Assembly: GCA_963663965.2 (NCBI GenBank)
Contig: CAXXFK010000001.1
Span: forward strand, 192,001 to 256,000
DNA from: Sedimentisphaerales bacterium
GTDB taxonomy: Bacteria > Planctomycetota > Phycisphaerae > Sedimentisphaerales > SM23-30
DNA: 64,000 bases
Direction of reading: 5' to 3'
Made by a program: the position numbers and the translations under genes. Of this stretch, positions 42,604 to 59,712 are shown one piece after another (the stretch's first letter is position 1; every line of letters begins with the position of its first letter). Under the pieces are notes generated by a model that was not told where the DNA came from, ran no database searches, and saw only the letters and a list, made by a program, of their open reading frames with translations.

Positions 42604-42949
42604 CTAAACTTGACTCGACCTGATTATCGGGCAATAATACAAAAAGAATTTAGCATAAGACACATTGCAAAAGACGGTATTTGAAAATCAGAACAATAAC
42701 GCCCAAGGAGGTAATATGGCTGTAACACGCCTATAAATAACCTTGGCGAGATAACGTTTTTCTGCGACCGACTGAAAATTTCAAGATCACAATATCAAGA
42801 TCAAACACTGATGATCCTATCGGGCGAGGTAAAAGTACCAGGCCTGAAGGGGTTGTTGAGTGTGTCTGAATTTCTGGCCGGTTGTTGATAGAACTCAAAT
42901 ATTATGCCGCTATTTTCAAATTGATTCTCTCGATGGGGAGAGTACACTC

Positions 42950-44002
42950 ATGGAATCCGTTCAGTATTATTTGAACGGGAGAGAAGGGATAGAGTTCCTT
43001 AACCGGATCAGCCGGGGTACGGTATATGCGACTATCGAGCATAACGGTCAGATCGGATATGAAAAAATAGTTTCCCTGTTATCCATCCAACCTGAGTTGA
43101 CCGGGTTGCCGCCTATTGAATCCGTTAAGAGTTTTTATTTTCCGGCGCGGGAACGGGTCGCTGTTTATGGGAATTGTGAGTATTCAACCCCATCAGAGGC
43201 AGAGCCGGAATCAATCGGCTATCAGACGATTATTGGTGCGCGTACCTGTGATTTGAGCGCGTTGAAGGTCATGGATCGCATCTTTCTGGATCAGGAGTTC
43301 CATGATCCGTTTTATGAATCCCGACGGAAAAACACCCTGCTGGTAACGGTCGATTGCGTCCAGCCGGGCGAGTATTGTTTTTGCAATCTGGTGGGCGGCC
43401 AACCCTGGCCGCTGGATGGGTATCAGGTTCATTTATCGCCGATAGAGGGTGGTTACCTGGTCAGTTTTGGCAATGGCGTTGAAACTTTCCTGCTGGATTC
43501 GGTAAAAACGATGCTGTCCATGGCCACAGACCATCAAATTGCGCAAAAGGAATCCAACCGGGCCGGCGCGCTGGAACGACTGAAGACATGGAATCGCGGT
43601 TTTACCCCATTGACATCCATGAATGACATTGGCGCTATTGAGGACTGGGGCGAGTTATCCTGTTCGTGTGTGGAATGTGGAGCGTGCAGTTATGTCTGTC
43701 CAACCTGCCACTGCTTTCTGTTATTCGATCAGAGGGCACGCAGCGTACCTGAGATTCATATCCGCGAGAAGTCCTGGGACAGTTGCCTGCTGGCCAATTA
43801 CGCCAAAATGGCCGGCGTTGGCGGTATGAAACCCACCCCGCGACCGGAGTTACGGAACCGGTTTGAAAATCGTATTCGCCATAAATTCGAATGGATGGTC
43901 CAAAATCTCGGGTTGATCGGATGTGTGGGATGCGGCCGGTGCCGTTCAGCCTGCCTGGGGGGATCGGATATCCGGGCCGTTATTGAGGAGTTACACACAT
44001 GA
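42950..44002 (+). CDS. AsrA/HydB-like 4Fe-4S subunit
   Basis: RTCD, VDC..CFC, CVECGACSYVCPTCHC, HKF, CVGCGRCRSAC. Confidence 0.9.
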   Translation: MESVQYYLNGREGIEFLNRISRGTVYATIEHNGQIGYEKIVSLLSIQPELTGLPPIESVKSFYFPARERVAVYGNCEYSTPSEAEPESIGYQTIIGARTCDLSALKVMDRIFLDQEFHDPFYESRRKNTLLVTVDCVQPGEYCFCNLVGGQPWPLDGYQVHLSPIEGGYLVSFGNGVETFLLDSVKTMLSMATDHQIAQKESNRAGALERLKTWNRGFTPLTSMNDIGAIEDWGELSCSCVECGACSYVCPTCHCFLLFDQRARSVPEIHIREKSWDSCLLANYAKMAGVGGMKPTPRPELRNRFENRIRHKFEWMVQNLGLIGCVGCGRCRSACLGGSDIRAVIEELHT

Positions 44003-44817
44003 TCCAGGCGAATCCCTATCAACCGATAGAAACGATACTGCTCGAGGTCATTACGGAAACCCCGACGATCAAGACGCTGGTACTGAAACCCAATGAGCCG
44101 ATCCCTTTTCGCGCCGGTCAGTTCATGCAACTGACCTGTCCGGGTATGGGGGAAGCGCCCTTTACCCCGTCATCCAATCCCCGTGACGCCGATATCCAGA
44201 CGATTACCATTTTAAAGACCGGCAAAGTCACCGATCAACTGCATGAATGCCGGGCGGGCGACACCCTGGGCTTGCGCGGCGCGTTTGGCAAGGGATATCC
44301 CATTGACAAGTTCTATGACAAAAACATTCTGCTGGTGGGCGGAGGCGTCGGGTTGGCGCCACTGCGGGCCCTGATTTACGCCTTGTTTAATGAAATCGAC
44401 CGGTTTAAACGAATCTCGATTAAATACGGCGCCCGGTCTCCGGAAGAGCTGCTGTTTAAGAATGAATTCAAACGCTGGCAGCAGATGGATCGGGTTGATT
44501 TTACCGCAACCGTGGACCGTGCCTCCAATGGGTGGCAGGGACCAGTAGGCGTTGTGACGACTCTATTGGATGACCTCGATCTGGATATCGCCAATGCGTA
44601 TGTGGTATCCTGCGGCCCGCCGATCATGCTCCGGTACGTTACGTTAAAATGCCTGGATCTGGGTTTCAAGCCCGCCCAGATTTATTTATCCATGAATCGC
44701 AAGATGAGTTGCGGCGTGGGGGTCTGCGGACGGTGCAATATCGGGCCGTATTACCTCTGCAAGGATGGCCCGGATATGTGTTACGAGAAGATTAAGGATT
44801 ATGACAATGTCTTTTGA
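43999..44817 (+). CDS. AsrB/HydG-like FAD/NAD(P)-binding 2Fe-2S subunit
   Basis: GQF..GEAP, GGGVGLAP, CGPPIM, MSCGVGVCGRC..CKDGP. Confidence 0.92.
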   Translation: MIQANPYQPIETILLEVITETPTIKTLVLKPNEPIPFRAGQFMQLTCPGMGEAPFTPSSNPRDADIQTITILKTGKVTDQLHECRAGDTLGLRGAFGKGYPIDKFYDKNILLVGGGVGLAPLRALIYALFNEIDRFKRISIKYGARSPEELLFKNEFKRWQQMDRVDFTATVDRASNGWQGPVGVVTTLLDDLDLDIANAYVVSCGPPIMLRYVTLKCLDLGFKPAQIYLSMNRKMSCGVGVCGRCNIGPYYLCKDGPDMCYEKIKDYDNVF

Positions 44818-44831
44818 AACAAGGCCCGACA

Positions 44832-46565
44832 ATGGATGGTAACCTATCGAGATGTCCTTATTGTTCTTTGATGTGCCCGGTCGCCATCGAACGGCGCGCT
44901 CATGGCGTGACATTGCCGGCATACACAAACCCCGATGAATATTCCGGCGGACACCTGTGTTATCGCGGGCATTACCTGGCTCCCCTGCTCTGTCATCCCA
45001 ATCGCCTGATCGAAGCGACCCTGCAATCCGCCCCGGAACAACAAACGCAATCGGAGATCCATCACCAGGCGGCCCGGAAACTGCAAGAAGCCAGTAGAAA
45101 CAAGACTTTGGGGACACTGATATCGGGTAATCTGCCGGTGGAAGAAATCCACGCCGGCGGTCATTTTTTTCAGTCGATTTTGCCGGCCAGATCGACCAGT
45201 ATTTTTCTACCTCCTGCCGATGAAGCGATGATGCGTCAATTACGCGGTGGCCGGTATAAACCCGGTTTGCCGACCGCACTGGAAAAAGCCGATATCATTC
45301 TGGCCGTTGGCGATGTGCTGGGAACCCATCCGGTACTGGCCGGGCGGTTGATGGATCGGCTGGAAAGCAAGAAGCCCCCGATACTGATTAACCTGGACAG
45401 TATGAAGGGACGCACGATGCGCTTCGCGCGGATTGGACTGACTACCCAAACCGGTATGGAATGCTGGGGCATCGAAGCCCTGTTAACCTTGGTTAACCAT
45501 TCTAAAAAACCTGAGACGAAGGCCTGTTATCATGACGCACTGGCGGTCTGCGAACTGGAGGACGCGGCGGTTAAGGAGGCGGCAGAGGCCATCCGTCCGG
45601 AAAAAGGCAAGACGGTAGTCCTGCTGTTAACGATCCCACAAGGGCATTGCCGCCGTCCAAATGAACTGGCAACGTTAACCGGGCTGCTGGCGCGTACGAT
45701 CAAAGCCACACTGGTTCCATTATTGACCTATGCCAACGCGCCTGGCGCGTTCGCGGTCAGTCATACCCTGGGAACGACCCCACCGGCCCACTGGTTGAAA
45801 CAGGCCATGGATGGATCCTTCACGACCTTGTTTATTGCAGATGTCGATCTGTTCGGGATGTTGCCAAAAAACACCATCCAGACTATTCGCGCGAAAGTCG
45901 AAACCCTCATTACGGCCGCAGCGATGCCCGGACCCACCACTGAACTTTCGGATATTGTGCTGCCTCTGGCATTCGGCTTTGAAATGACCGGGCATTATAT
46001 GAATTGTCAGGGGACATTGATCAAACGTCAACCGCTGGGCATGCCGCCGGGACATGCCGTGGCATTAAGCGCGATGCTGCATCAGATCGACAAGCTATTG
46101 CTCCTGCCAGAAGTCACACGAATGCTCCCTGACGAATTTGCCTTGGAACTGGCTTCGGTTTCGGCGGCAGACCGGACCAAGCCGGAATTGTTGATACCGG
46201 AACCGGCTAATTCCTATACTTTGACGGCGCGTACTGAAACACTGGACCTTTATGAAGGAGCCGTATCCCGTCAGATGGACTGGCCGCTGGGTATCGAACC
46301 GATTCCAGTTGTGCTAATTCATCCGGAAAAGGCGCGGGCATTAAAACTGGCCGGCAATGACCGGATCCTGCTGACTCGAGGCACGCATGAGCAGGAATTT
46401 CTGGTAAGGATCAGCGACGCGGTCTGGCCGGACACGCTGGCTCTATCCGCGACTATACCGGAGACGCGTCATTACTTCCAATGGGAATTGAATGATGATG
46501 GTATCGAAATCACCCCTGTGCCGGTCGAAATCCGGCCGGCGGTTTGCGAGGTGGCCTGTGGCTGA
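44832..46565 (+). CDS. molybdopterin-oxidoreductase-fold subunit (FdhF/NuoG-like, apparently non-catalytic)
   Basis: CPYCSLMC..LCYRG 4Fe-4S motif; SDIVLPLA..E..G..N; C-terminal IHP..A..L domain; no Cys/Sec-His ligand evident. Confidence 0.75.
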   Translation: MDGNLSRCPYCSLMCPVAIERRAHGVTLPAYTNPDEYSGGHLCYRGHYLAPLLCHPNRLIEATLQSAPEQQTQSEIHHQAARKLQEASRNKTLGTLISGNLPVEEIHAGGHFFQSILPARSTSIFLPPADEAMMRQLRGGRYKPGLPTALEKADIILAVGDVLGTHPVLAGRLMDRLESKKPPILINLDSMKGRTMRFARIGLTTQTGMECWGIEALLTLVNHSKKPETKACYHDALAVCELEDAAVKEAAEAIRPEKGKTVVLLLTIPQGHCRRPNELATLTGLLARTIKATLVPLLTYANAPGAFAVSHTLGTTPPAHWLKQAMDGSFTTLFIADVDLFGMLPKNTIQTIRAKVETLITAAAMPGPTTELSDIVLPLAFGFEMTGHYMNCQGTLIKRQPLGMPPGHAVALSAMLHQIDKLLLLPEVTRMLPDEFALELASVSAADRTKPELLIPEPANSYTLTARTETLDLYEGAVSRQMDWPLGIEPIPVVLIHPEKARALKLAGNDRILLTRGTHEQEFLVRISDAVWPDTLALSATIPETRHYFQWELNDDGIEITPVPVEIRPAVCEVACG

Positions 46566-47082
46566 ATTATCGACAGTATCAACGGAACCCAAACCTGATC
46601 CAGCTGAACAGGAACGCGTGGTATTGAATCTGGACCGATGTATCGGATGCCGGAGTTGTTCGGCAGCCTGTTTTTACGGGCATCTGGGCATGCCGAATAT
46701 CACCTTTGGGGCACTGGTCGAGGGCACTTTGCCGGTTATCTGCCGTCAGTGTGACGACCCGGCCTGTGAAGAGGCCTGCCCCGTGAACGCATTAAGACGA
46801 GATGACCAAGGCATAACCGCACGCAGCCGGATGCTGTGTATTGGATGTAAAAACTGCGTATTTGCCTGTCCATTTGGTGTTTTGAGCCCCAGCCTGACAT
46901 TAAGGCAAGTAGCCAAATGTGATTATTGTCAAGATTTAGTAGACCAGGAAGAACCGCCCCGCTGTGTTCAGGCCTGTCCGGCGGGAGCATTGAGCTATGT
47001 CAGATATCATGCCGACGAGAAAAAAGCGCCCATACTATTAAGCGGGCGAACGATCGGCAAACACCCTTACAAGAGACGATGA
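46558..47082 (+). CDS. 4x[4Fe-4S] ferredoxin subunit (HycB/CooF-like)
   Basis: CIGCRSCSAAC, CRQCDDPACEEACP, CIGCKNCVFACP, KCDYC..CVQACP. Confidence 0.9.
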   Translation: MAELSTVSTEPKPDPAEQERVVLNLDRCIGCRSCSAACFYGHLGMPNITFGALVEGTLPVICRQCDDPACEEACPVNALRRDDQGITARSRMLCIGCKNCVFACPFGVLSPSLTLRQVAKCDYCQDLVDQEEPPRCVQACPAGALSYVRYHADEKKAPILLSGRTIGKHPYKRR

Positions 47083-47095
47083 AAGGAACCCGGCC

Positions 47096-48013
47096 ATGAA
47101 TCTGATGGCAATTCCGGCACTGGCCGGCGCGACGATGGGAACGATTGCGATCGGATTTCTATCCAAATGGATCGATCGCAAAGTGACCGCCCGCATTCAG
47201 TGGCGCGTGGGACCGCCCTGGTATCAGCCGCTGGCCGATGTGATTAAACTGATGGGCAAAGAAACTCTCTTGCCCGAGAGCGCGCGTGGCACCGGATTTC
47301 TGATGATGCCGCTGGTTGGGTTTGCGGCGGCTGCGGTAGCCGCAACGATTTTATGGTGGGCTACTTTTAATCCCGGTTCCGGATTTGTGGGCGATACGAT
47401 TGTCGTACTTTATTTACTGACGATTCCGGCCCTGATGACCATTCTGGGCGGGTCGGCCTCGGGTAATCCCCTGGCGGCAGTCGGGGCCGCGCGCGAGATG
47501 AAACTGGCGCTGGCCTATGAATTGCCATTATTGATTTCGGTCCTGGCGGCGGTCATGGCACGGTCCGGAGATTTTCGCCTGGGCGGCCTGATCGAAACGT
47601 CGCCGCAAGGTGTTTTCAGCAGCCTGGCCTGTGTGCTGGGATTCTTAGTGGCGATTTTGTGTATCCAGGCCAAACTGGGATTGGTGCCCTTCGACATTGC
47701 TGAAGCCGATTGTGAAATTGCCACCGGTCCTTTCATTGAGTATTCCGGGGTGGCGCTGGCGATGATTCTGCTGACCCGAACCATTCTGTTCGCCCTGCTG
47801 CCCATCTTCCTGATTACTATTTTCTGGGGTGGTTTGAATTTCTATTCGATAACGGGTGTGCTGGCAACCATCGGCAAATATGTTCTGATTATTGTCTTAA
47901 TGGTATTGATCCGAAATACCAACCCGCGGGTACGTATCGATCAAGCCATGAAATTTTTCTGGTTTGGCATGACGCCGATCGCGCTGATCGCGCTGATGCT
48001 GGCTTTAATATAA
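47096..48013 (+). CDS. hydrogenase membrane subunit (NuoH/HycD/MbhM-like)
   Basis: RKVTARIQWRVGPP..QPLAD..KL..KE; PFDIAEA; EYSG; PRVRIDQ. Confidence 0.92.
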   Translation: MNLMAIPALAGATMGTIAIGFLSKWIDRKVTARIQWRVGPPWYQPLADVIKLMGKETLLPESARGTGFLMMPLVGFAAAAVAATILWWATFNPGSGFVGDTIVVLYLLTIPALMTILGGSASGNPLAAVGAAREMKLALAYELPLLISVLAAVMARSGDFRLGGLIETSPQGVFSSLACVLGFLVAILCIQAKLGLVPFDIAEADCEIATGPFIEYSGVALAMILLTRTILFALLPIFLITIFWGGLNFYSITGVLATIGKYVLIIVLMVLIRNTNPRVRIDQAMKFFWFGMTPIALIALMLALI

Positions 48014-48027
48014 GGGAGAATTCGAAC

Positions 48028-48477
48028 ATGAATCTGAAAACCTGGGCCCTGAAAAAATCGATCTGGCTCTATCATGCCAATGTGGGCGCCTGTAACAACT
48101 GCGATATCGAAGTGGTCGACTGCCTGACGCCGCGATACGATATCGAGCGATTCGGGATGATGCTGGTAGGCAGTCCCCGTCATGCCGACGCTCTGGTTGT
48201 TACCGGTATCTGCACCATGCAGGCCCGGCCACGGTTGCAGGAACTGTACCAGCAGATGCCCAGACCCTGCCTGGTTTTGTGTATCGGGTCTTGTGCCTGT
48301 TCGGGTGGAATTTTTCGGTCCTGTTATCACTTTGCCGGCCCGGTTGACGAGGCGATCCGCGAGGTGGATCCCGCGGCGATTATCGCTTATGTGCCGGGTT
48401 GTCCACCCAAACCCGAGGCGATTATTGCCGGCGCGGTCAAGGCGCTGGGCGCTATTCCGGATGAAGCGATCGCGTAA
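48028..48477 (+). CDS. group 4 [NiFe]-hydrogenase small subunit (HycG/MbhJ-like)
   Basis: GACNNCDIE, SPRHAD, GSCA..GG, PGCPPKP. Confidence 0.93.
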   Translation: MNLKTWALKKSIWLYHANVGACNNCDIEVVDCLTPRYDIERFGMMLVGSPRHADALVVTGICTMQARPRLQELYQQMPRPCLVLCIGSCACSGGIFRSCYHFAGPVDEAIREVDPAAIIAYVPGCPPKPEAIIAGAVKALGAIPDEAIA

Positions 48478-48489
48478 AGGAAGTCTGTT

Positions 48490-48993
48490 ATGAATAATAA
48501 TGAGTTATTGAAAATGATTGAACAGAAACTGGGAGAAATATCCGAATCGATAACCGTCCGCAAAAGCCGGCGCATCTATATCGATGTGCCGCCGGAGTTC
48601 AGTCTGCAAGCGAACCGGATTTTATTTGCAGAGTTACAGGCCAGACTGGCCACCGCCACCGGCATGGATACTCCTGACCGCATCGAGGTATTGTACCATT
48701 ACTGCTTTGATTCTTCAGGCGTTGTTGTGTCAATTCGTACCTGGGCGCTCAAACCGGAGTGTGTGCTGGATTCTGTCGCGACGCTATTCCCGGGAGCCAA
48801 CTTTATCGAACGGGAAATCCAGGACCTGCTGGGGGTACGTTTTGAAAATCATCCCGATCCGCGCCGGCTCCTGCTGGCGGATAACTGGCCTGAAGGCAAA
48901 TATCCGCTCCGCCGCGATCAGGCCCTGCGGCGCGAACGGACCGAAACTCCTGAATTAAAACGACAGGCTTGTACAAAGGCGACCACACCATGA
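48490..48993 (+). CDS. NuoC/MbhK-like 30-kDa subunit
   Basis: ANFIEREIQDLLGVRFENHPDPRRLLL..WP..YPLR. Confidence 0.92.
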   Translation: MNNNELLKMIEQKLGEISESITVRKSRRIYIDVPPEFSLQANRILFAELQARLATATGMDTPDRIEVLYHYCFDSSGVVVSIRTWALKPECVLDSVATLFPGANFIEREIQDLLGVRFENHPDPRRLLLADNWPEGKYPLRRDQALRRERTETPELKRQACTKATTP

Positions 48994-50174
48994 AAAAAAC
49001 CATCATACCGATCGGGCCCTTTCATCCGATTCAGGAAGAACCGGAATTTTTCCAGCTGACGGTGGAAGGCGAGACGGTGGTCGATGTTGACGTACGGCTT
49101 TCCTACAACCACCGGGGGATCGAGCGGCTCTGTCAGGATCTGACCTACGATCAGATTCCTTTTTTACTGGCCCGGATCTGCGGTATCTGTTCGGCGAGCC
49201 ATCCAATGGCGTTTTGTCAGGCGTGCGAAGATCTCTGCGGCGTGGAAGTTCCCATACGCGGACGGCATTTGCGCACCATCATCTGCGAAATGGAACGGAT
49301 CCACAGTCACCTGCTCTGGGCGGGATTGGCGGGTCACTTTATTGGATACAATACCGTGTTCATGTGGGCCTGGAAATATCGTGAACCGGTGCTCGAATTG
49401 TTTGAACGGCTGCTGGGCAACCGCAACCATTACGAAAACTTTTGTGTGGGCGGCTGCCGGCGCGATATCCCGCAGGAACATATGCCGGATATTCTCAAGA
49501 TGGCGGATGAACTGGAAGGACCGGTGGAAATGCTGACCCAGGCCGTACTGGATGATCCCGTATTAAAAGCGCGGTTGGGCGGCATCGGCGTCTTGACCTA
49601 TGAACAAGCCCGGCAATGGTGCACCACCGGCCCAACCGCGCGCGGGTCCGGGTACGATATCGATGTCCGGCGGGATGAGCCATACGCTTCTTATGATCTG
49701 CTGGACTGGCAGGTTTATACCCAGCCGGCCGGTGATGTCTTTGCCAAGGCCGTTGTTCGACTCCTGGAGGTTCTGGAGGCGATCCGGATTATCCGTCAGA
49801 CTGTTGCTCAGATCGAGCCGGGCGACATCCGCGCTGAAGTGCTGGAGATGCCGGAAGGTGAAGGCATCGGTCATGCCGAAGCGCCGCGTGGTGAGACCTT
49901 TCACTACGTCTGCTCGGATGGTTCCAATTATCCTCAACGCTATAAAGTACGCGCGCCCACTTATGTCAACCTGCCCAGTTTTAAGGCCTGTGTGGTGGGC
50001 CAGGAACTGGCAGACGCCATGTTGAGTGTGGCGGCGATGGATCCCTGTTACAGTTGTACCGAACGGGTGGCAGTGGTAAGGCCGCGACAAGGTCATCGTA
50101 AAGAGCGGTTCGACCAGAAAGCGTTAATAAAAATGAGCTGGGATAAAACCCGGCGTATCATGCAAAATGTATAA
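48990..50174 (+). CDS. group 4 [NiFe]-hydrogenase large subunit (HycE/MbhL-like)
   Basis: GPFHP; HRGIE; L1 RICGIC; L2 DPCYSCTER; C-terminal extension after the Arg. Confidence 0.95.
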   Translation: MKKTIIPIGPFHPIQEEPEFFQLTVEGETVVDVDVRLSYNHRGIERLCQDLTYDQIPFLLARICGICSASHPMAFCQACEDLCGVEVPIRGRHLRTIICEMERIHSHLLWAGLAGHFIGYNTVFMWAWKYREPVLELFERLLGNRNHYENFCVGGCRRDIPQEHMPDILKMADELEGPVEMLTQAVLDDPVLKARLGGIGVLTYEQARQWCTTGPTARGSGYDIDVRRDEPYASYDLLDWQVYTQPAGDVFAKAVVRLLEVLEAIRIIRQTVAQIEPGDIRAEVLEMPEGEGIGHAEAPRGETFHYVCSDGSNYPQRYKVRAPTYVNLPSFKACVVGQELADAMLSVAAMDPCYSCTERVAVVRPRQGHRKERFDQKALIKMSWDKTRRIMQNV

Positions 50175-50268
50175 CAGGTTACTGGATAACCACTGACTTG
50201 AATTGTCAGACATCAAGTCAAGGCCTGGCATTTTCTGATCGCCAATCCGATCAGAAAGGATATCGGCA

Positions 50269-52149
50269 ATGAATGAAACGACATTGATCTGGATGTTAAT
50301 AATCCCCAGCATCGCCGGCCTGCTGGCGTATCTCTGGCCGCGCCAGGGACAGCCGGTCGTACGACTGCTGGCGCTGGTGGCGACGGCAATGCTGGTTTTC
50401 CTGGCGATTATCCCGATTTATCATTCGGACTGGCAATGGCAATGGACCTGGCTGCGAACGGGTCAACTCGCTATCGGTATCGACCTGACGGCCAGACCTT
50501 TCGCAAGTGTGATAAGTTTGATGATCGCCCTATTCGGTTTTCTGATTACCCTTTACGACGTCGCTTATCTCCGGGGAGCAATCGGTCGTCATTATGCCTA
50601 TATGCTCTGGACCCTGGCCGGTGCTATTGGTGCGGCGCTGGCGAATGACCTTATTTTTCTACTATTCTGCTGGGAAATTACTACCCTGATGCTTTTCCTG
50701 CTGATCAATCAATCCGGGCCTCAGGCGCGTACCGGGGCGGCCAAAACCCTGGCCATGCTGGGTTTCAGCGATTGCGCGCTACTGCTGGGTATTGGTTTGA
50801 TCATCACACGGCCGGATATGAGCTCGCCGGCGATCGATCAAATCCACCTGAGTACCAATACGCCGCTGATGGCCATCTGTTACCTGCTCTTTATGATCGC
50901 GGGGCTGGCCAAGGCCGGCGCGATGCCGTTTCATACCTGGATTCCTACTGCCGCGGAGGCGACGACCTGCGATGTGATGGCGCTTCTGCCCGCAGCGCTG
51001 GATAAACTGCTGGGGATCTACCTGCTGGCACGGGCCTCACTCGAACTGTTTGTTCTGACTGACGGATTGAAGATGCTGCTCATGATTATCGGTGCGGTAA
51101 CAATTATTGGCGCGGTAATGATGGCAATGGTCCAGCATGACTTAAAGAAACTGCTTTCGTTTCATGCGGTCAGTCAGGTCGGTTATATGGTGCTGGGAAT
51201 CGGAACCGGCAGTGTTCTGGGTATCGCCGGTGGGTTGTTTCATATGTTCAACAACGCGATCTATAAAAGTTGCCTGTTTCTGACGGCCGGCGCAGTGGAA
51301 AAGCAGGCGGGCACGACCCACCTCGACCGGTTGGGCGGGCTGGCCCGAACCATGCCATTGACTTTTACGGCCTGTCTGCTGGCCGCATTGGCTATTTCCG
51401 GGGTGCCGCCCATGAATGGATTCAGCTCCAAATGGATGATCTACCAGGCCGTACTGGATGTGCCTTCACGCTGGGCGCCGATCCTGACGGCGGCGGCCAT
51501 CTTTGGCAGCGCCCTGACCCTGGCGAGTTTTGTCAAGGTACTGCACAGTGTCTTTTTGAGCGTGCCCGCACCGGACCAGGCCCCGGCAGTCGAGGGCGAA
51601 GTATCGGGTTGGATGACGGTACCAATGCTGGCGCTGGGCGTAACCTGTATTGTATTTGGAATCTGGGTGGCGCTGCCGCTGGGCGCGTTGATCATCCCGT
51701 CGATGACATCGATGGGGCAGGCCGGTACTGACACCATTCTACAGGCCAACCAGATCGATGCGGCGGCCCGGTTGTGGAATCCGGGACTGGCGACTTTGCT
51801 GCTGCTGGGGGGGCTGCTTATGGGGCTGATTATCTATTTCCTGGGCAAAGGTTTCAAAGTACGCCGGACCCGCACTTATATTGGCGGCGAAAAGATCACT
51901 CCTGAGCTGGTTCATTACAATGGTACCGGCTTCTATACCACCCTGCGAAACCTGCCCGGTATTCACGCCCTTTATCGCGACGCAGAGCGCCAGGTCTTTG
52001 ATATCTATCACCTGACCGGACGACTGGGCCATACCCTGGTCGAAGGCCTGCGCCGAACCCAGACGGGTATTCTATCGCTGTATATCAGTTGGGTCATTTT
52101 AGGGCTGGTGGTGATATTAATCTGTTTTATCAAGCTCCACAGCGGATAA
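50269..52149 (+). CDS. antiporter-like proton-pumping subunit (NuoL/MrpA/HyfB-like)
   Basis: WE, KAGAMPFHTWIP, DLKKLLSFH..SQVGY, KSCLFL, GVPPMNGF.SKW. Confidence 0.9.
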   Translation: MNETTLIWMLIIPSIAGLLAYLWPRQGQPVVRLLALVATAMLVFLAIIPIYHSDWQWQWTWLRTGQLAIGIDLTARPFASVISLMIALFGFLITLYDVAYLRGAIGRHYAYMLWTLAGAIGAALANDLIFLLFCWEITTLMLFLLINQSGPQARTGAAKTLAMLGFSDCALLLGIGLIITRPDMSSPAIDQIHLSTNTPLMAICYLLFMIAGLAKAGAMPFHTWIPTAAEATTCDVMALLPAALDKLLGIYLLARASLELFVLTDGLKMLLMIIGAVTIIGAVMMAMVQHDLKKLLSFHAVSQVGYMVLGIGTGSVLGIAGGLFHMFNNAIYKSCLFLTAGAVEKQAGTTHLDRLGGLARTMPLTFTACLLAALAISGVPPMNGFSSKWMIYQAVLDVPSRWAPILTAAAIFGSALTLASFVKVLHSVFLSVPAPDQAPAVEGEVSGWMTVPMLALGVTCIVFGIWVALPLGALIIPSMTSMGQAGTDTILQANQIDAAARLWNPGLATLLLLGGLLMGLIIYFLGKGFKVRRTRTYIGGEKITPELVHYNGTGFYTTLRNLPGIHALYRDAERQVFDIYHLTGRLGHTLVEGLRRTQTGILSLYISWVILGLVVILICFIKLHSG

Positions 52150-52167
52150 CTTCCCAGGGAGAATATT

Positions 52168-52692
52168 ATGTATCCATTTATCATTGTGTTAACACTGTTT
52201 CTCATGCTGGCGGCGTTTGTGGCGATTGAAGCCAAGGGATTGCTTTCCACAGTCGTTTCAGTAGGGGCGGCCGGACTGGCGCTGGCGGTGATTTTCATGC
52301 TGCTGGGTGCGCCCGATCTGGCCATTACGCAAGTTGTCGTTGAGGTCCTCTGCCTGGTATTATTGATCCGGGCGGCGGTGATGCGGGAAGATTCAACCTT
52401 TGGCACACCGCAGAGCAGCTTTGTACTGGCGGCTGGATTGATCGGAGGGGGCATATTTCTAACGCTGGTCTATTTTGCTTTACAGACCTTGACGCCGTTT
52501 GGAACCCCGCTGATGAATCTGTCGGAAGGCTATCTGCAAAATGGTTTAACACAGACTGGTGCAGTCAATTATGTCATGGCCATCCTGCTGGATTACCGCG
52601 CTTATGATACCCTGGGGGAAGCCACGGTGATTTTTGCCTCGATTATCGGTGTTTACGCCGTGATGCGACGGCTCGGGAGGAAGAAATCATGA
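52168..52692 (+). CDS. MbhD/MbhE-like subunit (MrpA C-terminal part)
   Basis: APDLAITQ..VE; N.V..ILLDYRAYDTLGE. Confidence 0.88.
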   Translation: MYPFIIVLTLFLMLAAFVAIEAKGLLSTVVSVGAAGLALAVIFMLLGAPDLAITQVVVEVLCLVLLIRAAVMREDSTFGTPQSSFVLAAGLIGGGIFLTLVYFALQTLTPFGTPLMNLSEGYLQNGLTQTGAVNYVMAILLDYRAYDTLGEATVIFASIIGVYAVMRRLGRKKS

Positions 52693-53138
52693 AAGGAATG
52701 ACGCTTATCGTTAAAGAAGTGACCAACCTGGTTATCGGATTTATTTTGCTGTTTTCGATCTATCTGGTGTTATACGGCCATCTTTCGCCCGGCGGTGGAT
52801 TTGTGGGCGGGGTCATGCTGAGTTGCGGCCTGATCCTGCTGATCCTGGCGCACGGCAAGGAAACGTTCAATACCCTGATCGATGACCGAGCCATGACCCT
52901 GTGGGATTGTATCGGAGCACTGCTGTTTCTGGTCCTGGCTTTGCTGGGGTATAGCGCCGGTATATTTTTCGCCAATATTTTTTCGGCCTGGGGCAGACCG
53001 TTCACCCTGGTCAGTGGCGGGACAATACCTCTGGCCAATATTGCCATTGGCATTAAAGTCGGTGCGTGTCTGGCCGGGGCCTTTATCGCGCTGGTGGTGA
53101 CGGGCAAAGCCAAACAATCGCTATCCGGAGATCTGTAA
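52689..53138 (+). CDS. MrpB/MbhF-like subunit
   Basis: GHLSPGGGFVGG; IGIKV. Confidence 0.9.
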   Translation: MKGMTLIVKEVTNLVIGFILLFSIYLVLYGHLSPGGGFVGGVMLSCGLILLILAHGKETFNTLIDDRAMTLWDCIGALLFLVLALLGYSAGIFFANIFSAWGRPFTLVSGGTIPLANIAIGIKVGACLAGAFIALVVTGKAKQSLSGDL

Positions 53139-53140
53139 TC

Positions 53141-53503
53141 ATGAACACTGGAATGATACCTTACTTTCTTGCCATGCTGGTTATCGGGATCGGTCTGTAC
53201 GCGATCATCGCCAAAAAGAACATTATCAAAATCATCGTCGGGTTGATCATTCTCGACTACGGCGCCAATCTGTTTTTGATATTATGCGGGTATCGTCATG
53301 AGGGCATTGCCCCGATCCGGACACCGGATATGGCCGCGGATTCATTTGTCGCCACATCGGTCGATCCGGTGCCACAGGCATTGATTCTAACCTCGATCGT
53401 GATCGGTTTGGGACTGGTAGCCCTGATGGCGGCAATTGCCATACGAATTTATGAAAAATACCGAACCTTCGATATTACCCGGATTCGCCAGTTGAAGGGA
53501 TAA
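53141..53503 (+). CDS. MrpC/MbhG-like subunit
   Basis: KNIIKIIVGL; DPVPQALILTSIVIG. Confidence 0.92.
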   Translation: MNTGMIPYFLAMLVIGIGLYAIIAKKNIIKIIVGLIILDYGANLFLILCGYRHEGIAPIRTPDMAADSFVATSVDPVPQALILTSIVIGLGLVALMAAIAIRIYEKYRTFDITRIRQLKG

Positions 53504-53508
53504 TTATT

Positions 53509-55035
53509 ATGAATGCTATTCTGCCTTTGTTTGTTGTGATTCCGCTGGCGCTGGCTTTTATTCTGCCGTTGCTTGAGAAGCGCTCATACGGTTCGTTCCT
53601 GAGCCGGGCACTCGCCGTGCTGGCTTCAATAGTCCTGCTGATTCTGGCCGTCAGCCTGCTGTTCAGCCCATCTTCGATCAGTTGGATCGGAGGGTGGTCG
53701 CCTTCCAAAGGTTCGATAGGAATCAGTATGGTGCTGGATCCGCTCAGCGCCATGATGATGGTGATCGTTACGGTGGTTGCCCTGGCCGCGACACTCTATT
53801 CGCTGAATTACATGAAACGCTTTACCTCAGAACCACTCTTCTACTGCCTGTTCTTTCTGATGATCGCCGGTATTCATGGCGTTGTCCTGACGGGCGATAT
53901 TTTCAATCTGTATGTCTTCCTGGAAGTCGCCGCCATCGCCAGCTATTCGCTGGTGGCATTCGGATGCGAAATGGAGGAGTTGGAGGCCTCTTTCAAGTAC
54001 CTGGTGCTGGGATCGATCGGCTCAATCTTTATCTTTCTGGGGATCGGAATTATTTATAACCAGACCGGACATCTCAACTTGCAGTTCATTCGCGCCAATT
54101 TGCCGCCTGACAATGGCGCGGTTATGATCGCGGCGGCCTTTTTCCTGACCGGTTTCAGTCTCAAAGCCGCCATGGTGCCGTTTCACGCCTGGCTGCCGGA
54201 CGCCCATCCATCGGCGCCGGCCCCCATCTCTGCCATGCTGTCGGGGATACTCATCAAAGCCCTGGGAGTTTATACCATGATCCGGGTCTTCTTTACGACC
54301 ATGATCCTTAATCGCGAACTGGTCTGGGTACTGATCACCCTGGGGGCAGTCAGCATGGTGATCGGGGTTTTTCTGGCCGTGGGACAATGGGATTTCAAAC
54401 GGTTGTTGGCTTATCATTCGATCAGCCAGATGGGCTATGTCGTTCTCAGTCTGGGCGTGGCCGGTGAGATGCTGCTGAACAATAATTGTACGGTCGCGTC
54501 ATTGGCTTTGCTGGGCGGATTGTTTCACATGGCCAACCATGCCACCTTCAAATCATTGCTGTTTCTCTGTTCCGGCGCAGCGGAGTATGCGACTGGAGTA
54601 CGTCAGCTCAAACTGCTGGGCGGTTTAAAATATCGCATGCCGGTTACTGGCGCCTGCCTGCGTATCGGGGCCTTGAGCATTTCGGGAATCCCGCCCTTTA
54701 ACGGATTCTGGAGCAAACTGATTATTGTAATCGCCGTCCTCCAGGCCGGGCATCCACTACTGGGCGCCATGACCGTACTGGTCAGTTTTATGACACTCCT
54801 GTCATTTATCAAAGTACAGCGCTATATTCTCGATGGCGAACCCTCCGAACGAGTTACTCAGGCCCGTGAAGTGCCGGTTGGTATGCAACTGGCAATGGTC
54901 TTACTGGCAGTGATCTGCCTGGGGGCGGGTTTGTTATTGCCTGTTTACAAAGACATCTTTTTCGAAAACGCCGGTCGGATCGTGACAGACTCCATAACGA
55001 GTACGATTCAACTTCTGGCTGGAAGCGGAGGCTAA
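53509..55035 (+). CDS. MrpD/MbhH-like antiporter subunit
   Basis: DIFNLYVFLE, EASFKY, KAAMVPFHAWLPDAH, KRLLAYHS, GIPPFNGF.SK. Confidence 0.92.
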   Translation: MNAILPLFVVIPLALAFILPLLEKRSYGSFLSRALAVLASIVLLILAVSLLFSPSSISWIGGWSPSKGSIGISMVLDPLSAMMMVIVTVVALAATLYSLNYMKRFTSEPLFYCLFFLMIAGIHGVVLTGDIFNLYVFLEVAAIASYSLVAFGCEMEELEASFKYLVLGSIGSIFIFLGIGIIYNQTGHLNLQFIRANLPPDNGAVMIAAAFFLTGFSLKAAMVPFHAWLPDAHPSAPAPISAMLSGILIKALGVYTMIRVFFTTMILNRELVWVLITLGAVSMVIGVFLAVGQWDFKRLLAYHSISQMGYVVLSLGVAGEMLLNNNCTVASLALLGGLFHMANHATFKSLLFLCSGAAEYATGVRQLKLLGGLKYRMPVTGACLRIGALSISGIPPFNGFWSKLIIVIAVLQAGHPLLGAMTVLVSFMTLLSFIKVQRYILDGEPSERVTQAREVPVGMQLAMVLLAVICLGAGLLLPVYKDIFFENAGRIVTDSITSTIQLLAGSGG

Positions 55036-55038
55036 GCG

Positions 55039-55524
55039 ATGAAATACCTGGCTTCGTTTATTATGTTGTTACTGCTCTGGCTGATACTGGCTAATCCGGA
55101 TTCAGCCTGGGAGTGGCTTACCGGCGCGGCAGTGGCATTGCTACTCTCTGTTGTGTTAGGGCGGCTCTATCGCCCTGTTCCAATCGCCATCCTCGATCCG
55201 GTACGCTGGCTCTGGTTTGTAGTGTATGCTCTCTATTTCATTTACTACTGTATCCGCGCCAATCTGGATGTGGCCTATCGGGCGCTGCATCCGGATATGC
55301 CGATTCGTCCCGGGATTGTCAAAGTCCAGACCCGATTAAAAAGCGATATTGCCAAAACCTTCCTGGCCAACTCGATTACTCTGACGCCCGGCACACTCAC
55401 CATAGACATCATGGGCAACTCGCTGTTCATACACTGGATCAATATCGTCACTGACGACCCGGACGGGCAAACGGATATTATTGTCAGACGTTTCGAAACC
55501 CTTTTGGAAAGGATCTTCGAATGA
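55039..55524 (+). CDS. MrpE/MbhA-like subunit
   Basis: ANLDVA; ANSITLTPGT. Confidence 0.92.
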   Translation: MKYLASFIMLLLLWLILANPDSAWEWLTGAAVALLLSVVLGRLYRPVPIAILDPVRWLWFVVYALYFIYYCIRANLDVAYRALHPDMPIRPGIVKVQTRLKSDIAKTFLANSITLTPGTLTIDIMGNSLFIHWINIVTDDPDGQTDIIVRRFETLLERIFE

Positions 55525-55778
55525 TTACCATAGGAATGTGGATACTGATCATCGCCAGTTTTCTGTGCCTTTACCGGATAGCCGCGGGGCCAACCGCGCC
55601 GGACCGCACAGTTGCCATCGATATACTCGGTACCCTGATGATCGGCTTTGTCTGTCTGTTCGCTCTGCTGCACAAGCAGGATTTTTATATGAATATCGCG
55701 CTGGCCTGGGCCCTGCTCAGTTTTATCGGATCCATTGCCCTGGCCAAATATCTGGAAGGCAGGCATTTCCATGAATGA
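55521..55778 (+). CDS. MrpF/MbhB-like subunit
   Basis: RIAAGPTAPDRTVAID..AKYL. Confidence 0.92.
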   Translation: MITIGMWILIIASFLCLYRIAAGPTAPDRTVAIDILGTLMIGFVCLFALLHKQDFYMNIALAWALLSFIGSIALAKYLEGRHFHE

Positions 55779-56121
55779 GTTGATTGGATCCATCCTGATT
55801 GGAATCGGACTGGCTTTTGACCTGGTCGGCGTCATTGGCCTGGTTCGCTTCCCTGATATCTACAATCGGTTACAGGCCGCCACCAAATGTGTTACACTAG
55901 GCACCGCCACCCTGTTGCTGGGTGTGGCCGTTTATGACGGTGGTTTTGCCCTGGGCGCCAAGGCTTTGCTCTGTGCCGTTTTCATTCTGCTCACCTCGCC
56001 CGTCGGGGCACACGCCATTGCCCGGGGCGCACATATTTCCGGCATCCGGCTTTGGGAGGGCAGCGTCTGCGACCGTTACCGGGAGGTACCCAAACAGGAG
56101 TCTGGCCATGAAGAAGCCTAA
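55771..56121 (+). CDS. MrpG/MbhC-like subunit
   Basis: GLVRFPDIYNRLQAATK; SPVGAHAIARGA. Confidence 0.92.
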   Translation: MNELIGSILIGIGLAFDLVGVIGLVRFPDIYNRLQAATKCVTLGTATLLLGVAVYDGGFALGAKALLCAVFILLTSPVGAHAIARGAHISGIRLWEGSVCDRYREVPKQESGHEEA

Positions 56122-56725
56122 ACTGCGAGAACTCGGCGAAGCCATTCGCTCACTGCTGAGTCCGGCTTTTACCACGCGATTTCCAGCTGTTCCAGCGCCG
56201 GCCCCGCCGGCTTATCGGGGTAAAGGCAAGTTCCACGATGAACAGTGTATTGGCTGCGGCGCCTGTGCCGAGGTCTGCCCGGCCGACGCTATCGAAGTGA
56301 TCGATAATATCACTGATGATACACCAATGCGTACCTTGATACGGCATGATGATATCTGCATTTTCTGTGGCCAGTGTCAGTCTTTATGTACAACGGAACA
56401 AGGCATTGAATGCACACCCGAATACGAACTGTCCACCTTTGATCGTGCCACTTGTGCGGTATCGGTGCAAAAAGAGCTGGTTTTATGCCGGCTCTGCGGC
56501 GAGACGATAACCACCAAAGACCACCTCCGCTGGCTGGCGGATAAACTGGGCACCAAACGTTACGCCAATCCAACTCTGATACTGATTAAAGAAGCACAAC
56601 TCGGGTTGCTTCCGCCGGAAACCGCGCCGCCACCGCGTCCTCATGAACCGGATCGGGGTGATACCATGCAGGTTTTATGTCCGCATTGCCGACGACAGGT
56701 CATTTTAAAGGAGATTTGGGGATGA
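56108..56725 (+). CDS. NuoI/HycF/MbhN-like 2x[4Fe-4S] subunit with extra CxxC pairs
   Basis: CIGCGACAEVCP, CIFCGQCQSLC, CRLC, CPHC. Confidence 0.9.
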   Translation: MKKPKLRELGEAIRSLLSPAFTTRFPAVPAPAPPAYRGKGKFHDEQCIGCGACAEVCPADAIEVIDNITDDTPMRTLIRHDDICIFCGQCQSLCTTEQGIECTPEYELSTFDRATCAVSVQKELVLCRLCGETITTKDHLRWLADKLGTKRYANPTLILIKEAQLGLLPPETAPPPRPHEPDRGDTMQVLCPHCRRQVILKEIWG

Positions 56726-57261
56726 CCATTCATGATATGCTTGCCCGGAACCTTGACAAAGAATCGCTCATTCTGGGGGTGGGCAACCGCCTTTTTGGCG
56801 ATGATGCTTTTGGACCGGCTGTCATCGACGGCCTGCGTGACCGGACATCGCTGGCATTGCTCAACGGAGGCATTGCCCCGGAAAATCTCTTCGGGCCCAT
56901 CTCCCGCCTGGCGCCTACCCGTGTCATTATCGCCGATGCCGTTTCGCTAAATGCTCCCTTTGGCAGCCTGCACTGGCTCGAACCGGATGAGCTGGATGGC
57001 GCCGCCATTTCTACCCACGGCCCGCCGCTTGACCTGGTGGTGGCGATTATTACGCAGTATATCAAAGCCCGGGTACATATCATCGGAGTGGTGCCCGCGA
57101 CTCTCGGGTTAAATCAGGCCATGTCACCGGAAGTGCAAAAAGCTACCCAAACGGTCGTTGCCTCCATCGCCGATCTGTTTCCGGCCGATCCCTCAGTCAT
57201 ACAATCGCTTGATTCCGACCCAATTTCGCACCGGACTCACAGGCGTACCGAACCCAAATAA
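56722..57261 (+). CDS. hydrogenase maturation protease (HycI-like)
   Basis: LGVGNRLFGDDAFGP, PEN, DA, STH motifs. Confidence 0.88.
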   Translation: MTIHDMLARNLDKESLILGVGNRLFGDDAFGPAVIDGLRDRTSLALLNGGIAPENLFGPISRLAPTRVIIADAVSLNAPFGSLHWLEPDELDGAAISTHGPPLDLVVAIITQYIKARVHIIGVVPATLGLNQAMSPEVQKATQTVVASIADLFPADPSVIQSLDSDPISHRTHRRTEPK

Positions 57262-57279
57262 CCTGATCAACAACATTAC

Positions 57280-59712
57280 TCAGCCGATTAAGGTATCGTA
57301 GGGCCACATTTCCAGCCCCCCTTCCAGCACCCGTACCTGATCAAAACCGGCCGCATCCAGAATCAGGGAGGCTTCATACGCGCGCAAACCGGAATTACAA
57401 AGCGTAACAATCAATTTGTTACCATCCAATTCGTTGGCTCGTTCACGTAACACACCCAGGGGGATATTCCGGACATAAGGCAGATGATTATGTTCCACTT
57501 CCATGGCGGTTCGCACATCAAGCAGAATCATATCCGCCCCTGAGCGGATCAGGTCGTATAGCTCCGCAGCCCCAATTCCTTTTAAATAGCCATCCAGCTT
57601 ATTGCACGCGATATTGGTGGCTGTAATCAGGTTATCCATGACCGGTGAAAAACTGGGCGCGTAACAAAGATCCAGATTACTCATGTCATCGACAGTCATA
57701 TGATTGGTAATTGCCAGCGCCGCCAAATTGACCCGGGCAACCGCGCTACCAGGCCCCACCGCCTGGGCGCCCAGCAAACGACGGCTGGCTTTATCAACCA
57801 CCAGTTTCAGTTTAATAGTAGCCGCTCCGGGCGCGAAATGTTCACGATCCGGCGCCGGATTTAATACGGTGATAGTATCATAGCCCCGCTCGCGGGCCTC
57901 CCGTTCGGTAAATCCGGTCCGAGCGATCTCGTAGTCGAACACCTTACAGCCGATACTGCCAATCACGCCCCGATAGGCCTTATCGCCGCCACAGACATTG
58001 ACAGCCACTACACGCCCCTGCTTATTGGCCGTTGAACCCAGTGGGATATGACAGCCCTGACCGCTGATCAGATGAATGGATTCGACACAGTCACCTGCGG
58101 CAAAAATATCCGGATCGGAGGTCCGAAGTTGTGCGTCCACTTTGATCCCCCCGGTCTTACCGAGTTCCAATCCGGCCTGGCGCGCCAATTCGGAATTGGG
58201 GCGTACCCCGGTCGATAAGATCACCATATCCGCCGGGAGAATCCCCCGACTGGTAGCCACCGCTTCAACCTGATCGCCGCCGATCAGCCGTTTTGTTTCG
58301 GTTTGGGTCAGAACTTTAACGCCATGCGCTTCCAGATAATTCTCCACCAGACGGGCAATCTGGTCATCCAGTATCCTCAGGATCTGAGACCGTTTCTCGA
58401 CGATACTGACCCGGCAGCCTTTACGCGCCAGCGCTTCTGTCACTTCGATTCCTACCAGGCCGCCCCCTAAAATAACGACATCGTGGGCCCGGCCGCGCTC
58501 CAACTCGGTCTTGATCCCTTCAGCGTCGGCGACACCCCACAAAGTAAATACATTGCGCAAACGCAATCCTTCGATATCCGGCATGACCGGCCGGGCGCCG
58601 GTGGCCAGAACCAGTTTATCATAATCCAGCCAGGTCTCTTTTTTGCTGACGTAATCACGCACCAGGATTCGTTTATGAGCGCGGTCAATCTCCAACGCCT
58701 CGGTCTGATTCATGATATGAACGTTCTTGACTTTCTGAAAGAAAACCGGGTCGCGAACGATACCCGCTGAAGAACTCATTAATTCGTATTGGTTTTTTAC
58801 TTCACCTGAAATGTAATATGGCAGACCGCAGCCGGCATAAGAAAGTAACTTCCCTTTTTCGATAATCGTCACGTCCGCTTCCGGAATCAGGCGGATAATC
58901 TTGGCGGCCACCTTGGGACCAGCAGCCACCCCGCCGACGATAATCACTTTCAATCGTTGTGCCATGGGCATATCCCCACTTTTCTGGATATGAGAGGGTT
59001 TTATTACGGGAAATTGTATAATGAATTCTGCCCCACCATAACGTGAACGGTCCACCTCGATCGTTCCACCCGCCGCATCGATTACTGCCTTCACAAAAGC
59101 CAGCCCCAGCCCAGAACCTGTGCGGGCAGCATTACTGCTGGATTGCGACCGGAAAAAAGGCATCAGTACCAGATCTCGCTCGGATTCAGCAATACCCGGC
59201 CCGGAATCTCCCACACGCAAACGAATGCGTTCGGAGGATTCAGTGTATTCGACAACGACATCGATATGGCCATGATCCGGTGTGTACTTTAACGCATTGT
59301 TAATCAGCGCTTCGATGGCCTCGATCAGCGCTGGTTCGTGGCTTTTTACCCAATCCTGTCCGGACATGGTGTTGTTATGTAGATTCAAATGGATGTGATG
59401 GCTTCTGGCAAGATCGTGATAACGGCCGGCGGCCTGTTCAACTGCCTTTACCAGGCTGGTATTGCCACGCAGGCTGTCGGGATTATGAATGGCCCGTGCG
59501 ATAGACAGCAATTGCTGGGCAGTCTGGATCGATTCATCGCAACGAAGTATGGCCTTTTCCAATAATTCTTTTTGTTTCGGGGTTAAAGGCCCGGCAAATT
59601 CACCCAATAGAACTTTTAGCAGACTGGCCACTGCGCTGACCGGTGTTTTTAATTGATGCGCGATCACAGCGGCATATTGCATCGGATCGGTTGGATCGAA
59701 TCGGGTTCCCAT
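57280..59712 (-). CDS. histidine kinase (HisKA-HATPase) in frame with CoA-disulfide/persulfide reductase and rhodanese domains
   Basis: H box AHQLKTP, N box NNALKYT, DSGPGI, GSGLGL; then GGVAAG, SYAGCGLPY, GGGLVG, AGDC, YAP; rhodanese DVR..CNSGLRA. May be two genes (see findings). Confidence 0.75.
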   Translation of the reverse strand: MGTRFDPTDPMQYAAVIAHQLKTPVSAVASLLKVLLGEFAGPLTPKQKELLEKAILRCDESIQTAQQLLSIARAIHNPDSLRGNTSLVKAVEQAAGRYHDLARSHHIHLNLHNNTMSGQDWVKSHEPALIEAIEALINNALKYTPDHGHIDVVVEYTESSERIRLRVGDSGPGIAESERDLVLMPFFRSQSSSNAARTGSGLGLAFVKAVIDAAGGTIEVDRSRYGGAEFIIQFPVIKPSHIQKSGDMPMAQRLKVIIVGGVAAGPKVAAKIIRLIPEADVTIIEKGKLLSYAGCGLPYYISGEVKNQYELMSSSAGIVRDPVFFQKVKNVHIMNQTEALEIDRAHKRILVRDYVSKKETWLDYDKLVLATGARPVMPDIEGLRLRNVFTLWGVADAEGIKTELERGRAHDVVILGGGLVGIEVTEALARKGCRVSIVEKRSQILRILDDQIARLVENYLEAHGVKVLTQTETKRLIGGDQVEAVATSRGILPADMVILSTGVRPNSELARQAGLELGKTGGIKVDAQLRTSDPDIFAAGDCVESIHLISGQGCHIPLGSTANKQGRVVAVNVCGGDKAYRGVIGSIGCKVFDYEIARTGFTEREARERGYDTITVLNPAPDREHFAPGAATIKLKLVVDKASRRLLGAQAVGPGSAVARVNLAALAITNHMTVDDMSNLDLCYAPSFSPVMDNLITATNIACNKLDGYLKGIGAAELYDLIRSGADMILLDVRTAMEVEHNHLPYVRNIPLGVLRERANELDGNKLIVTLCNSGLRAYEASLILDAAGFDQVRVLEGGLEMWPYDTLIG

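Follow-up and report, generated by a model that had tools for sequence, protein, structure and literature searches.

In the HoxBC-HoxJ-HoxA system of Ralstonia/Cupriavidus, hydrogenases are governed by a histidine kinase whose sensor is a cytoplasmic redox enzyme (PMC6978683). In Thermococcales, redox control by SurR ties sulfur availability to the Mbh and SH hydrogenases and to the sulfur reductase Nsr (PMC12162507). Here we describe a gene that may place hydrogenases under an enzyme-linked kinase of another kind. It lies in a stretch of 64,000 nucleotides from a Sedimentisphaerales bacterium (assembly GCA_963663965.2, contig CAXXFK010000001.1, positions 192,001 to 256,000 of the forward strand), hereafter the window, and it encodes a histidine kinase fused to a flavoenzyme and a rhodanese of the NADH-dependent persulfide reductase (Npsr) type. 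With a probability of roughly 40%, we propose that the redox or persulfide state of the fused enzyme drives the kinase and tunes hydrogenases.

Compared with HoxBC-HoxJ-HoxA, the likeness would be one of working principle, an enzyme acting as the sensor of a kinase, and it does not amount to membership. That system employs a separate [NiFe] sensor reading H2 and a DNA-binding regulator, whereas the present gene carries a fused flavoenzyme and is accompanied by a receiver-only protein. HoxJ carries a PAS domain. No PAS domain was found by Pfam in the fusion kinase, and the regulators neighboring the family are receiver-only. SurR addresses the same choice between H2 and sulfur as is proposed for the fusion; it is a one-component CxxC transcription factor with no kinase and no homology to the fusion. 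Known members of the Npsr/CoADR-RHD/CoAPR group (6PFZ; also 3NTA, 3ICR, and 8A56) stand alone and none is linked to a kinase, whereas the fusion carries one. No description of a kinase fused to a persulfide or coenzyme A (CoA)-disulfide reductase was found in the open literature, subscription journals being mostly outside this coverage.

A single gene conserved in independent genomes

A preliminary description of the locus had reported a HisKA/HATPase kinase without an input domain running in frame into a flavoprotein and a rhodanese, and both the open reading frame and the Pfam search agree with it (Table 1). No domain was found by Pfam N-terminal to the H-box helix. In an AlphaFold2 model built from a 68-row alignment, every domain was folded (mean predicted local distance difference test, pLDDT, 87.8; predicted template modeling score 0.70).

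The same description had cautioned that one extra C might have joined two co-transcribed genes. The letters behind this caution are all present, namely the CCC at 59008-59010, the TAA TAA in the other frame, the GGGGA at 58973-58977, and the ATGs at 58969-58971 and 58963-58965. A one-base deletion would create the double stop, and a ribosome-binding site lies upstream of the enzyme half. However, contigs assembled from two runs of one sample (perhaps the source of the assembly itself, and assembled contigs rather than raw reads) showed no indel, difference, or gap at the junction. The decisive evidence came from homologs in independent genomes. A search with the kinase part, restricted to proteins of 445-1418 aa, returned 79 proteins with kinase, flavoenzyme, and rhodanese among the best 120 matches (the rhodanese was missing in two truncated ones), with 35-48% identity over the kinase part. 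Because dozens of independent genomes encode the same in-frame fusion, it is a real and widely conserved single gene, and the suspected frameshift is refuted; the chance of an assembly error is negligible.

Within the order, the kinase-bearing fusion was found in 35 of 121 genomes (one copy being frameshifted inside the enzyme and some being cut by contig ends) and a kinase-less ortholog in 6. A scan of GTDB contigs yielded 31 family loci among 80, from Phycisphaerae/Sedimentisphaerales, Verrucomicrobiota, Lentisphaerota, Thermodesulfobacteriota, and Myxococcota. Thirty of these were in frame well past the kinase, and L034 was broken at many places. Judged by the nearest named homologs, the host is probably a Sedimentisphaerales-type planctomycete. 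It was noted that the breaks in the interrupted copies, one in L021 (15752-18164) and many in L034 (4679-7113), lie inside or before the enzyme part. The cultured species Anaerobaca lacustris (P0033) also carries the fusion. No member with a different sensor domain was found among the homolog matches or the short forms. These short forms are kinase-only relatives of 238-239 aa that end directly after the ATP-binding domain (P0126, P0271, P0272, P0127, P0169, and P0232; one cluster has three members), of which P0169 has His at the position following the phospho-accepting histidine (H+1) and a degenerate N box. A metagenome scan with P0271 gave 80 loci at no more than 48% identity, covering part of the query only.

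In the best tree, the 40 fusion rows formed one clade with five kinase-less orthologs outside it (Shimodaira-Hasegawa-like approximate likelihood-ratio support of 99 in the quick run and 93/85 in the careful run; the tree omits five near-duplicate rows and has a long outgroup branch). A tree grouping the kinase-less genes with the clade of the window was not rejected (approximately unbiased test, p-AU 0.227). An ancestral stand-alone enzyme gene that kept its own start would fit the best tree, later kinase loss being the alternative. The kinase-less ortholog of genome G004 (L020, 9312-12484) sits behind an ArsR-type regulator gene. An ArsR-type regulator with an enzyme is the usual one-component arrangement of a persulfide reductase.

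We then considered the linker, where the GGGGA and ATG named in the preliminary description fail as evidence of two genes and stand as a real, conserved signal. A start at Met250 would yield an enzyme-only protein of 561 aa (Met250-Gly810). Among the 50 genes with the linker in view (three duplicates removed, four family loci unparsed or dropped as broken), 21 have a Shine-Dalgarno sequence and an in-frame start within nine codons of the enzyme core, compared with 36 of 2650 equal windows inside the enzyme (1.4%). Nineteen of the 21 starts lie 5-6 codons away, their spacer being about 7 nt, and GGA encodes the linker Gly in 17 of 18 cases against 166 of 1030 elsewhere in the same genes. Since the rest of the linker is unconserved, an RNA signal appears to be under selection here, and it probably gives a second, enzyme-only product. 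The signal is concentrated in the clade of the window (15 of 19 rows under a looser rule).

A linker that is unconserved and flexible and keeps the start signal of the downstream gene would also suit a tolerated read-through join, in which the halves are independent, most of the enzyme comes from the internal start, and the kinase is cued by another protein; the existence of the kinase-only proteins and kinase-less orthologs points the same way. Yet the in-frame junction is kept across several phyla with a narrow range of linker lengths, 29 of the 50 genes have no internal start and so would make the enzyme solely as a fusion, and no fetched locus had a kinase of the family as a gene by itself with an intact enzyme gene behind it. 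We consider such a join quite improbable.

The Npsr-type enzyme and the kinase core

The assignment of the enzyme half to the Npsr type was supported by sequence and structure comparison, and both motifs named in advance, SYAGC with Cys295 and CNSGLR with Cys772, were found in the translation. The closest solved structure is Archaeoglobus fulgidus Npsr (AfNpsr, 6PFZ; E 1e-139, 43% identity, template modeling score 0.96 over residues 255-803). Its Cys42, Glu183, and Cys519 are matched in the alignment by Cys295, Glu439, and Cys772, and its lid loop 60-66 has a counterpart at residues 313-320 of the fusion (PMC7969121). Cys295 and Glu439 were present in all 80 rows of the family alignment, with a single redox Cys as in Npsr/CoADR-RHD. 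The NCBIfam/PRK cut-offs for CoA-disulfide reductase were missed (TIGR03385, 398 against 578.8 bits; PRK09564, 390 against 458). Judged by sequence, the enzyme half is an Npsr in which every catalytic residue of that type is retained, and it would be expected to work like one. Elsewhere in the genome (contig C38, about 94600-96240) and in L125-L128, L131, and L133, another, distant CoADR-rhodanese (34-35% identity) was encountered; these frames are about 780-850 aa long with a C-terminal extension of some 210-280 residues.

AfNpsr uses NADH only and reduces per- and polysulfides but not CoA-disulfide; it also oxidizes NADH with O2, and its host organism cannot respire sulfur (PMC7969121). This NADH oxidase activity in the closest solved relative favors a variant in which the enzyme still senses but responds to O2 or NADH/NAD+ rather than to persulfide, so that the system would protect or balance NAD-linked, O2-sensitive hydrogenases. 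The neighbors of the family fit such a cue, being NAD(P)-linked hydrogenases and Rex, while no sulfur-respiration gene recurred when the neighbors were clustered; the members without the rhodanese Cys fit it as well. However, every full-length member retains the rhodanese domain, its Cys772 is present in 69 of the 78 rows covering the position, and per- and polysulfides are the substrates that AfNpsr prefers in the same source. An O2 or NADH cue is judged improbable.

For the kinase half, the preliminary description had spoken of an intact kinase. This holds for the phospho-accepting His and the ATP pocket and fails for the catalytic pair, in which Gln20 stands at H+1 and Ala135 replaces the first N-box Asn (CpxA Asn356). 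The HisKA match scored 29 bits by Pfam (cut-off 26.9). Both His19 and Gln20 were found in 77 of the 77 rows having the N-terminus (three rows lack it), and Pro24 (H+5) in 78 of 80. In the ATP pocket, Asn139 and the G2 glycines were kept in 80 of 80 rows, Asp169 in 79, and Phe186 in 77. Near-invariance was also seen in the KYTP and DSGxG motifs, the F box, and GxGLGL, although the domain as a whole averages just 45-51% identity. Position 135 is Ala in 72 rows, Ser in 6, and Glu in 2, and Glu131 is present in 79 of 80.

In described kinases, an acidic residue at H+1 paired with the first N-box Asn acts as the general base for autophosphorylation (PMC3904827, PMC8292422), and the H+1 acid has also been treated as a proton relay (PMC11371814). 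The fusion shares the DHp (dimerization and histidine phosphotransfer) and HATPase folds, the phospho-His, and the N, G1, F, and G2 boxes with WalK/YycG, VicK, HK853, SrrB, and CpxA (best solved-kinase matches E 1e-29 to 1e-26). In contrast to these kinases, it has no transmembrane or N-terminal sensor and carries its accessory module C-terminally. It has Gln at H+1, Ala at four residues before the N-box Asn (N-4), and Glu at eight residues before it (N-8), where they have Glu, Asn, and Gln. In three alignments, WalK/YycG, VicK, and HK853 have Glu at H+1 and Gln at N-8 and the family has Gln and Glu, a reciprocal swap visible in the motifs HELRTP and TQV[LI]DNI[IL/M]xNA of WalK/VicK against HQLKxP and TEVLEALIxNA of the family. 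Outside the family, 33 kinase domains had Gln at H+1, and Glu at N-8 accompanied it in 11 of these compared with 24 of about 389 others, the counts being made by hand from lists of related sequences. It is possible that the autokinase base has been relocated from H+1 to Glu131, and the swap could equally mark a pseudokinase. The degenerate kinase described in PMC5457438 is a different one.

H-boxes of the form ASHQL[RK]TP were also encountered in unrelated kinases, many of them from Patescibacteria (L063, L064, L066, L070, L074, L087, L096, and L097; P0131, P0135, and P0139), and some of these carry Glu at N-8 and have lost the first N-box Asn. From these sequences, Gln at H+1 is a recurring natural variant.

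The altered kinase core also bears on a reversed flow of information. Here the core would be a pseudokinase, a phosphotransfer relay, or a phosphate sink that switches the reductase by ATP/ADP or through a receiver phosphorylated by another kinase. The replacement of both canonical catalytic partners in 75 of 77 family domains speaks for this, together with the residue at H+4, which is Thr23 in the window and Ser (46), Gly (17), or Ala (9) family-wide rather than Thr or Asn. The phosphatase motif likewise appears not to be kept across the family, and since H+4 is not Thr or Asn in most rows, a pure phosphatase is not favored either. Also for the reversed flow, a GAF kinase, a receiver, and the fusion follow in succession in one locus (L012). 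Against the reversed flow, the near-invariant Glu131 with the intact His, N, G1, F, and G2 resembles a rebuilt active site, and many unrelated kinases have Gln at H+1. We regard it as unlikely, though it is the main rival of the reading that we favor.

Hydrogenases, receivers, and Rex around the family

As the preliminary description had stated, the gene converges on a hydrogenase operon: 19 nt separate its stop from the end of a gene for a hydrogenase-maturation protease (56677-57261, + strand) in a group 4 [NiFe] operon, which also encodes a large subunit with both CxxC motifs. The hydrogenase tie claimed there is supported by conserved neighborhood and co-occurrence and not by this convergent layout. 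Promoter and terminator scans around the fusion gene were close to chance (7 against 4.5 and 4 against 3.5, respectively).

Marker searches of the flanks placed hydrogenase genes near 11 of 41 family loci, the window being uncounted and one twice-fetched locus being dropped. Four of the 11 were of Hox-type group 3, three were group 4 operons, three were hyp maturation clusters, and one was [FeFe] HydABC. Among 49 unrelated kinase loci taken as controls from the same scan, three were positive, all through generic NuoF/G-like or flavin subunits and none through a NiFe-specific gene. In 15 further loci, chosen before their flanks were seen and including two that repeat earlier negative loci, four were positive; the order fusion, Rex, group 4 operon was found there twice and the order fusion, receiver, group 4 operon once. 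For comparison, 1.4-2.4% of the genome of the window lies within 8 kb of hydrogenase markers. Seven loci including the window are syntenic with the group 4 operon, and in genome G014 two fusion copies each lie next to a different hydrogenase. A tie specific to group 4 was not supported at the genome level: close orthologs of the group 4 large subunit occur in 29 of the 121 genomes, and the fusion occurs in 9 of these 29 carriers, the expectation from 35 of 121.

Across the 121 genomes, close HoxH orthologs were found in 34 and the hox-operon receiver in 33. Fusion and Hox occurred together in 27 genomes, the fusion only in 8, Hox only in 7, and neither in 79, counts that kinship inflates. In family f6, the identical two of 33 genomes carry the fusion, Hox, and the receiver, and no Hox or receiver match was found in any of the six genomes with a kinase-less ortholog. 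Receiver-only proteins of about 124-150 aa adjoin or lie near the fusion in L011, L012, L018, L023, L045, L047, L052, L113, and L124. In L011, L023, and L047, a run of hoxFUYHW and the receiver gene converges on the fusion, and in L012 the consecutive GAF kinase is a separate gene. In the genome of the window, the hox-receiver operon is on the same contig about 240 kb off, and its receiver shares 70% identity with the L011 receiver. For the receiver that adjoins the fusion in genome G024, no match at 1e-28 was found in the other 120 genomes.

From this synteny and co-occurrence, the hox-operon receiver is the likely partner of the fusion kinase. A complex prediction for the kinase dimer and this one receiver scored 0.39 against 0.00 for the best control, with runs agreeing in at least 88% of contacts and a partner pLDDT of at least 76. 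In calibration, 116 of 157 solved pairs and 2 of 215 mismatched ones came up to the mark, but scores of 0.60 or below among them belonged to just 18 solved pairs and to both mismatches; kinase-receiver pairs are an already solved kind, and the prediction lends the pairing weak support.

IS200-like (Y1) transposase copies were noted directly upstream of the fusion (window, 60092-61069) and directly downstream of the hox-operon receiver (L104, 3460-4404). Such copies might have been the ends of a rearrangement that moved the fusion and the hox operon apart. The contigs at the window copy showed variant copies and a 1-nt difference at 60465. Beyond it, a PAS-SpoIIE phosphatase gene (61256-62521) is divergent from the fusion and did not recur among the clustered neighbors.

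Rex was found beside 3 of the 41 family loci and 0 of the 49 controls, and in two further loci. Rex-like boxes, scored against a consensus, precede both hydrogenase operons of the genome (the hoxF box about 175 nt upstream, L104 near 10167) and were found upstream of 4 of 13 examined hydrogenase operons compared with 2% of random windows. Upstream of fusion genes they were at background (1 of 48). Given these boxes before hydrogenase operons, transcription may be the task of Rex, and the receiver may act post-translationally.

Table 1. Positions of the fusion gene, its parts, and associated features (window coordinates unless a contig is named)
Feature	Position	Strand	Details
Fusion gene	57280..59712	-	HisKA-HATPase-linker-CoADR-type flavoenzyme-rhodanese; single open reading frame, 810 aa
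DHp helices (HisKA)	59491..59676	-	Residues 13-74; His19-Gln20 at 59653-59658
HATPase_c	59005..59337	-	Residues 126-236; Glu131 59320-59322, Ala135 59308-59310, Asn139 59296-59298; G1, F, and G2 boxes
Linker	58951..59004	-	Unconserved; 18-30 residues in homologs; low model confidence at 243-249
Internal start	58963..58977	-	GGGGA 58973-58977, 7-nt spacer, in-frame ATG of Met250 58963-58965
FAD/NAD-binding domains (Pyr_redox_2)	58066..58950	-	Residues 255-549; redox Cys295 58828-58830, NADH-selecting Glu439 58396-58398
Dimerization domain (Pyr_redox_dim)	57634..57948	-	Residues 589-693; YAP motif; Pfam and alignment
Rhodanese domain	57304..57570	-	Residues 715-803; Cys772 at 57397-57399
Group 4 [NiFe]-hydrogenase operon	42860..57261	+	Sulfhydrogenase beta/gamma-like NAD(P)H module, NuoG-like, membrane and Mrp-type (antiporter) subunits
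Rex-like operator	42586..42603	+	Upstream of hydrogenase operon; 3 mismatches to consensus; chance level window-wide
hox-operon receiver gene	Genome contig C1 4529-4912		Stand-alone receiver at operon end, no DNA-binding domain

A possible route from enzyme to hydrogenase

In the reading that we favor, the protein would be a soluble dimeric histidine kinase whose sole input module is a working NADH-dependent persulfide reductase fused behind it. A dimeric state is established for both the kinase and the flavoenzyme families. As no other module is present in the family and each half forms a dimer, the flavoenzyme as kinase input is the simplest reading. The enzyme would turn over NADH against per- or polysulfide via Cys772, CoA, and Cys295, like AfNpsr, and the ATP-binding domain would receive the enzyme's redox or ligand state via the short linker and the dimer common to both halves. 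His19 would still autophosphorylate, with Glu131 on the N-box helix substituting for the H+1 glutamate as base, and the phosphoryl group would move to a stand-alone receiver, most likely that of the hox operon. This receiver, having no DNA-binding domain, would act by a protein contact affecting hydrogenase activity, maturation, or a downstream regulator, in parallel to transcription control by Rex. The internal start would give extra enzyme-only subunits, and bulk catalysis and sensing could then come from one gene. In the earlier interpretation, the fusion, the Npsr-type enzyme, and the hydrogenase tie are supported, and the enzyme as sensor and a switch between H2 and sulfur are kept here as proposals.

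Several observations weigh against this reading. In the kinase, both the acidic H+1 and the first N-box Asn, which are described as necessary for an autokinase, are missing, and no printed description of an HQ H-box was found in the open literature (with the coverage given above). In the enzyme, 9 of 78 rows are without the rhodanese Cys, and the internal start is missing from 29 of 50 genes. On the output side, the receiver has no output domain, and the Rex-like boxes alone could explain the regulation of the hydrogenases. For the hydrogenase tie, no marker was found in the fetched flanks of 30 of 41 loci, many being on short contigs; the control loci are from other taxa, and kin among loci and genomes are not independent; the group 4 enzyme shows no genome-level co-occurrence with the fusion; and close matches to Hox or to its receiver are missing from 8 of 35 fusion genomes, seven of them making up the whole of family f7.

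The most complete version of the proposal would combine a persulfide-reductase sensor, the relocated base Glu131, the hox-operon receiver, and the enzyme-only isoform to set hydrogenase use by sulfur or redox state in anaerobic bacteria of the Planctomycetes-Verrucomicrobia-Chlamydiae group and in deltaproteobacteria. This would be a bacterial two-component system and a phosphorylation-based counterpart of SurR, and we put it forward tentatively, as somewhat unlikely to hold in all of its parts.

The rule that an acid at H+1 is required in HisKA kinases meets a natural experiment in this family. Kinase activity, if true, would mean an alternative catalytic arrangement that may extend to many HQ-type kinases, and inactivity would mean that a conserved pseudokinase controls an enzyme. 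Should the enzyme be the sensor, the fusion would be a compact soluble kinase that reads reactive sulfur or the NADH state through catalysis, and it would provide a handle on how electrons are shared between H2 and sulfur in anaerobes of sediments and digesters.

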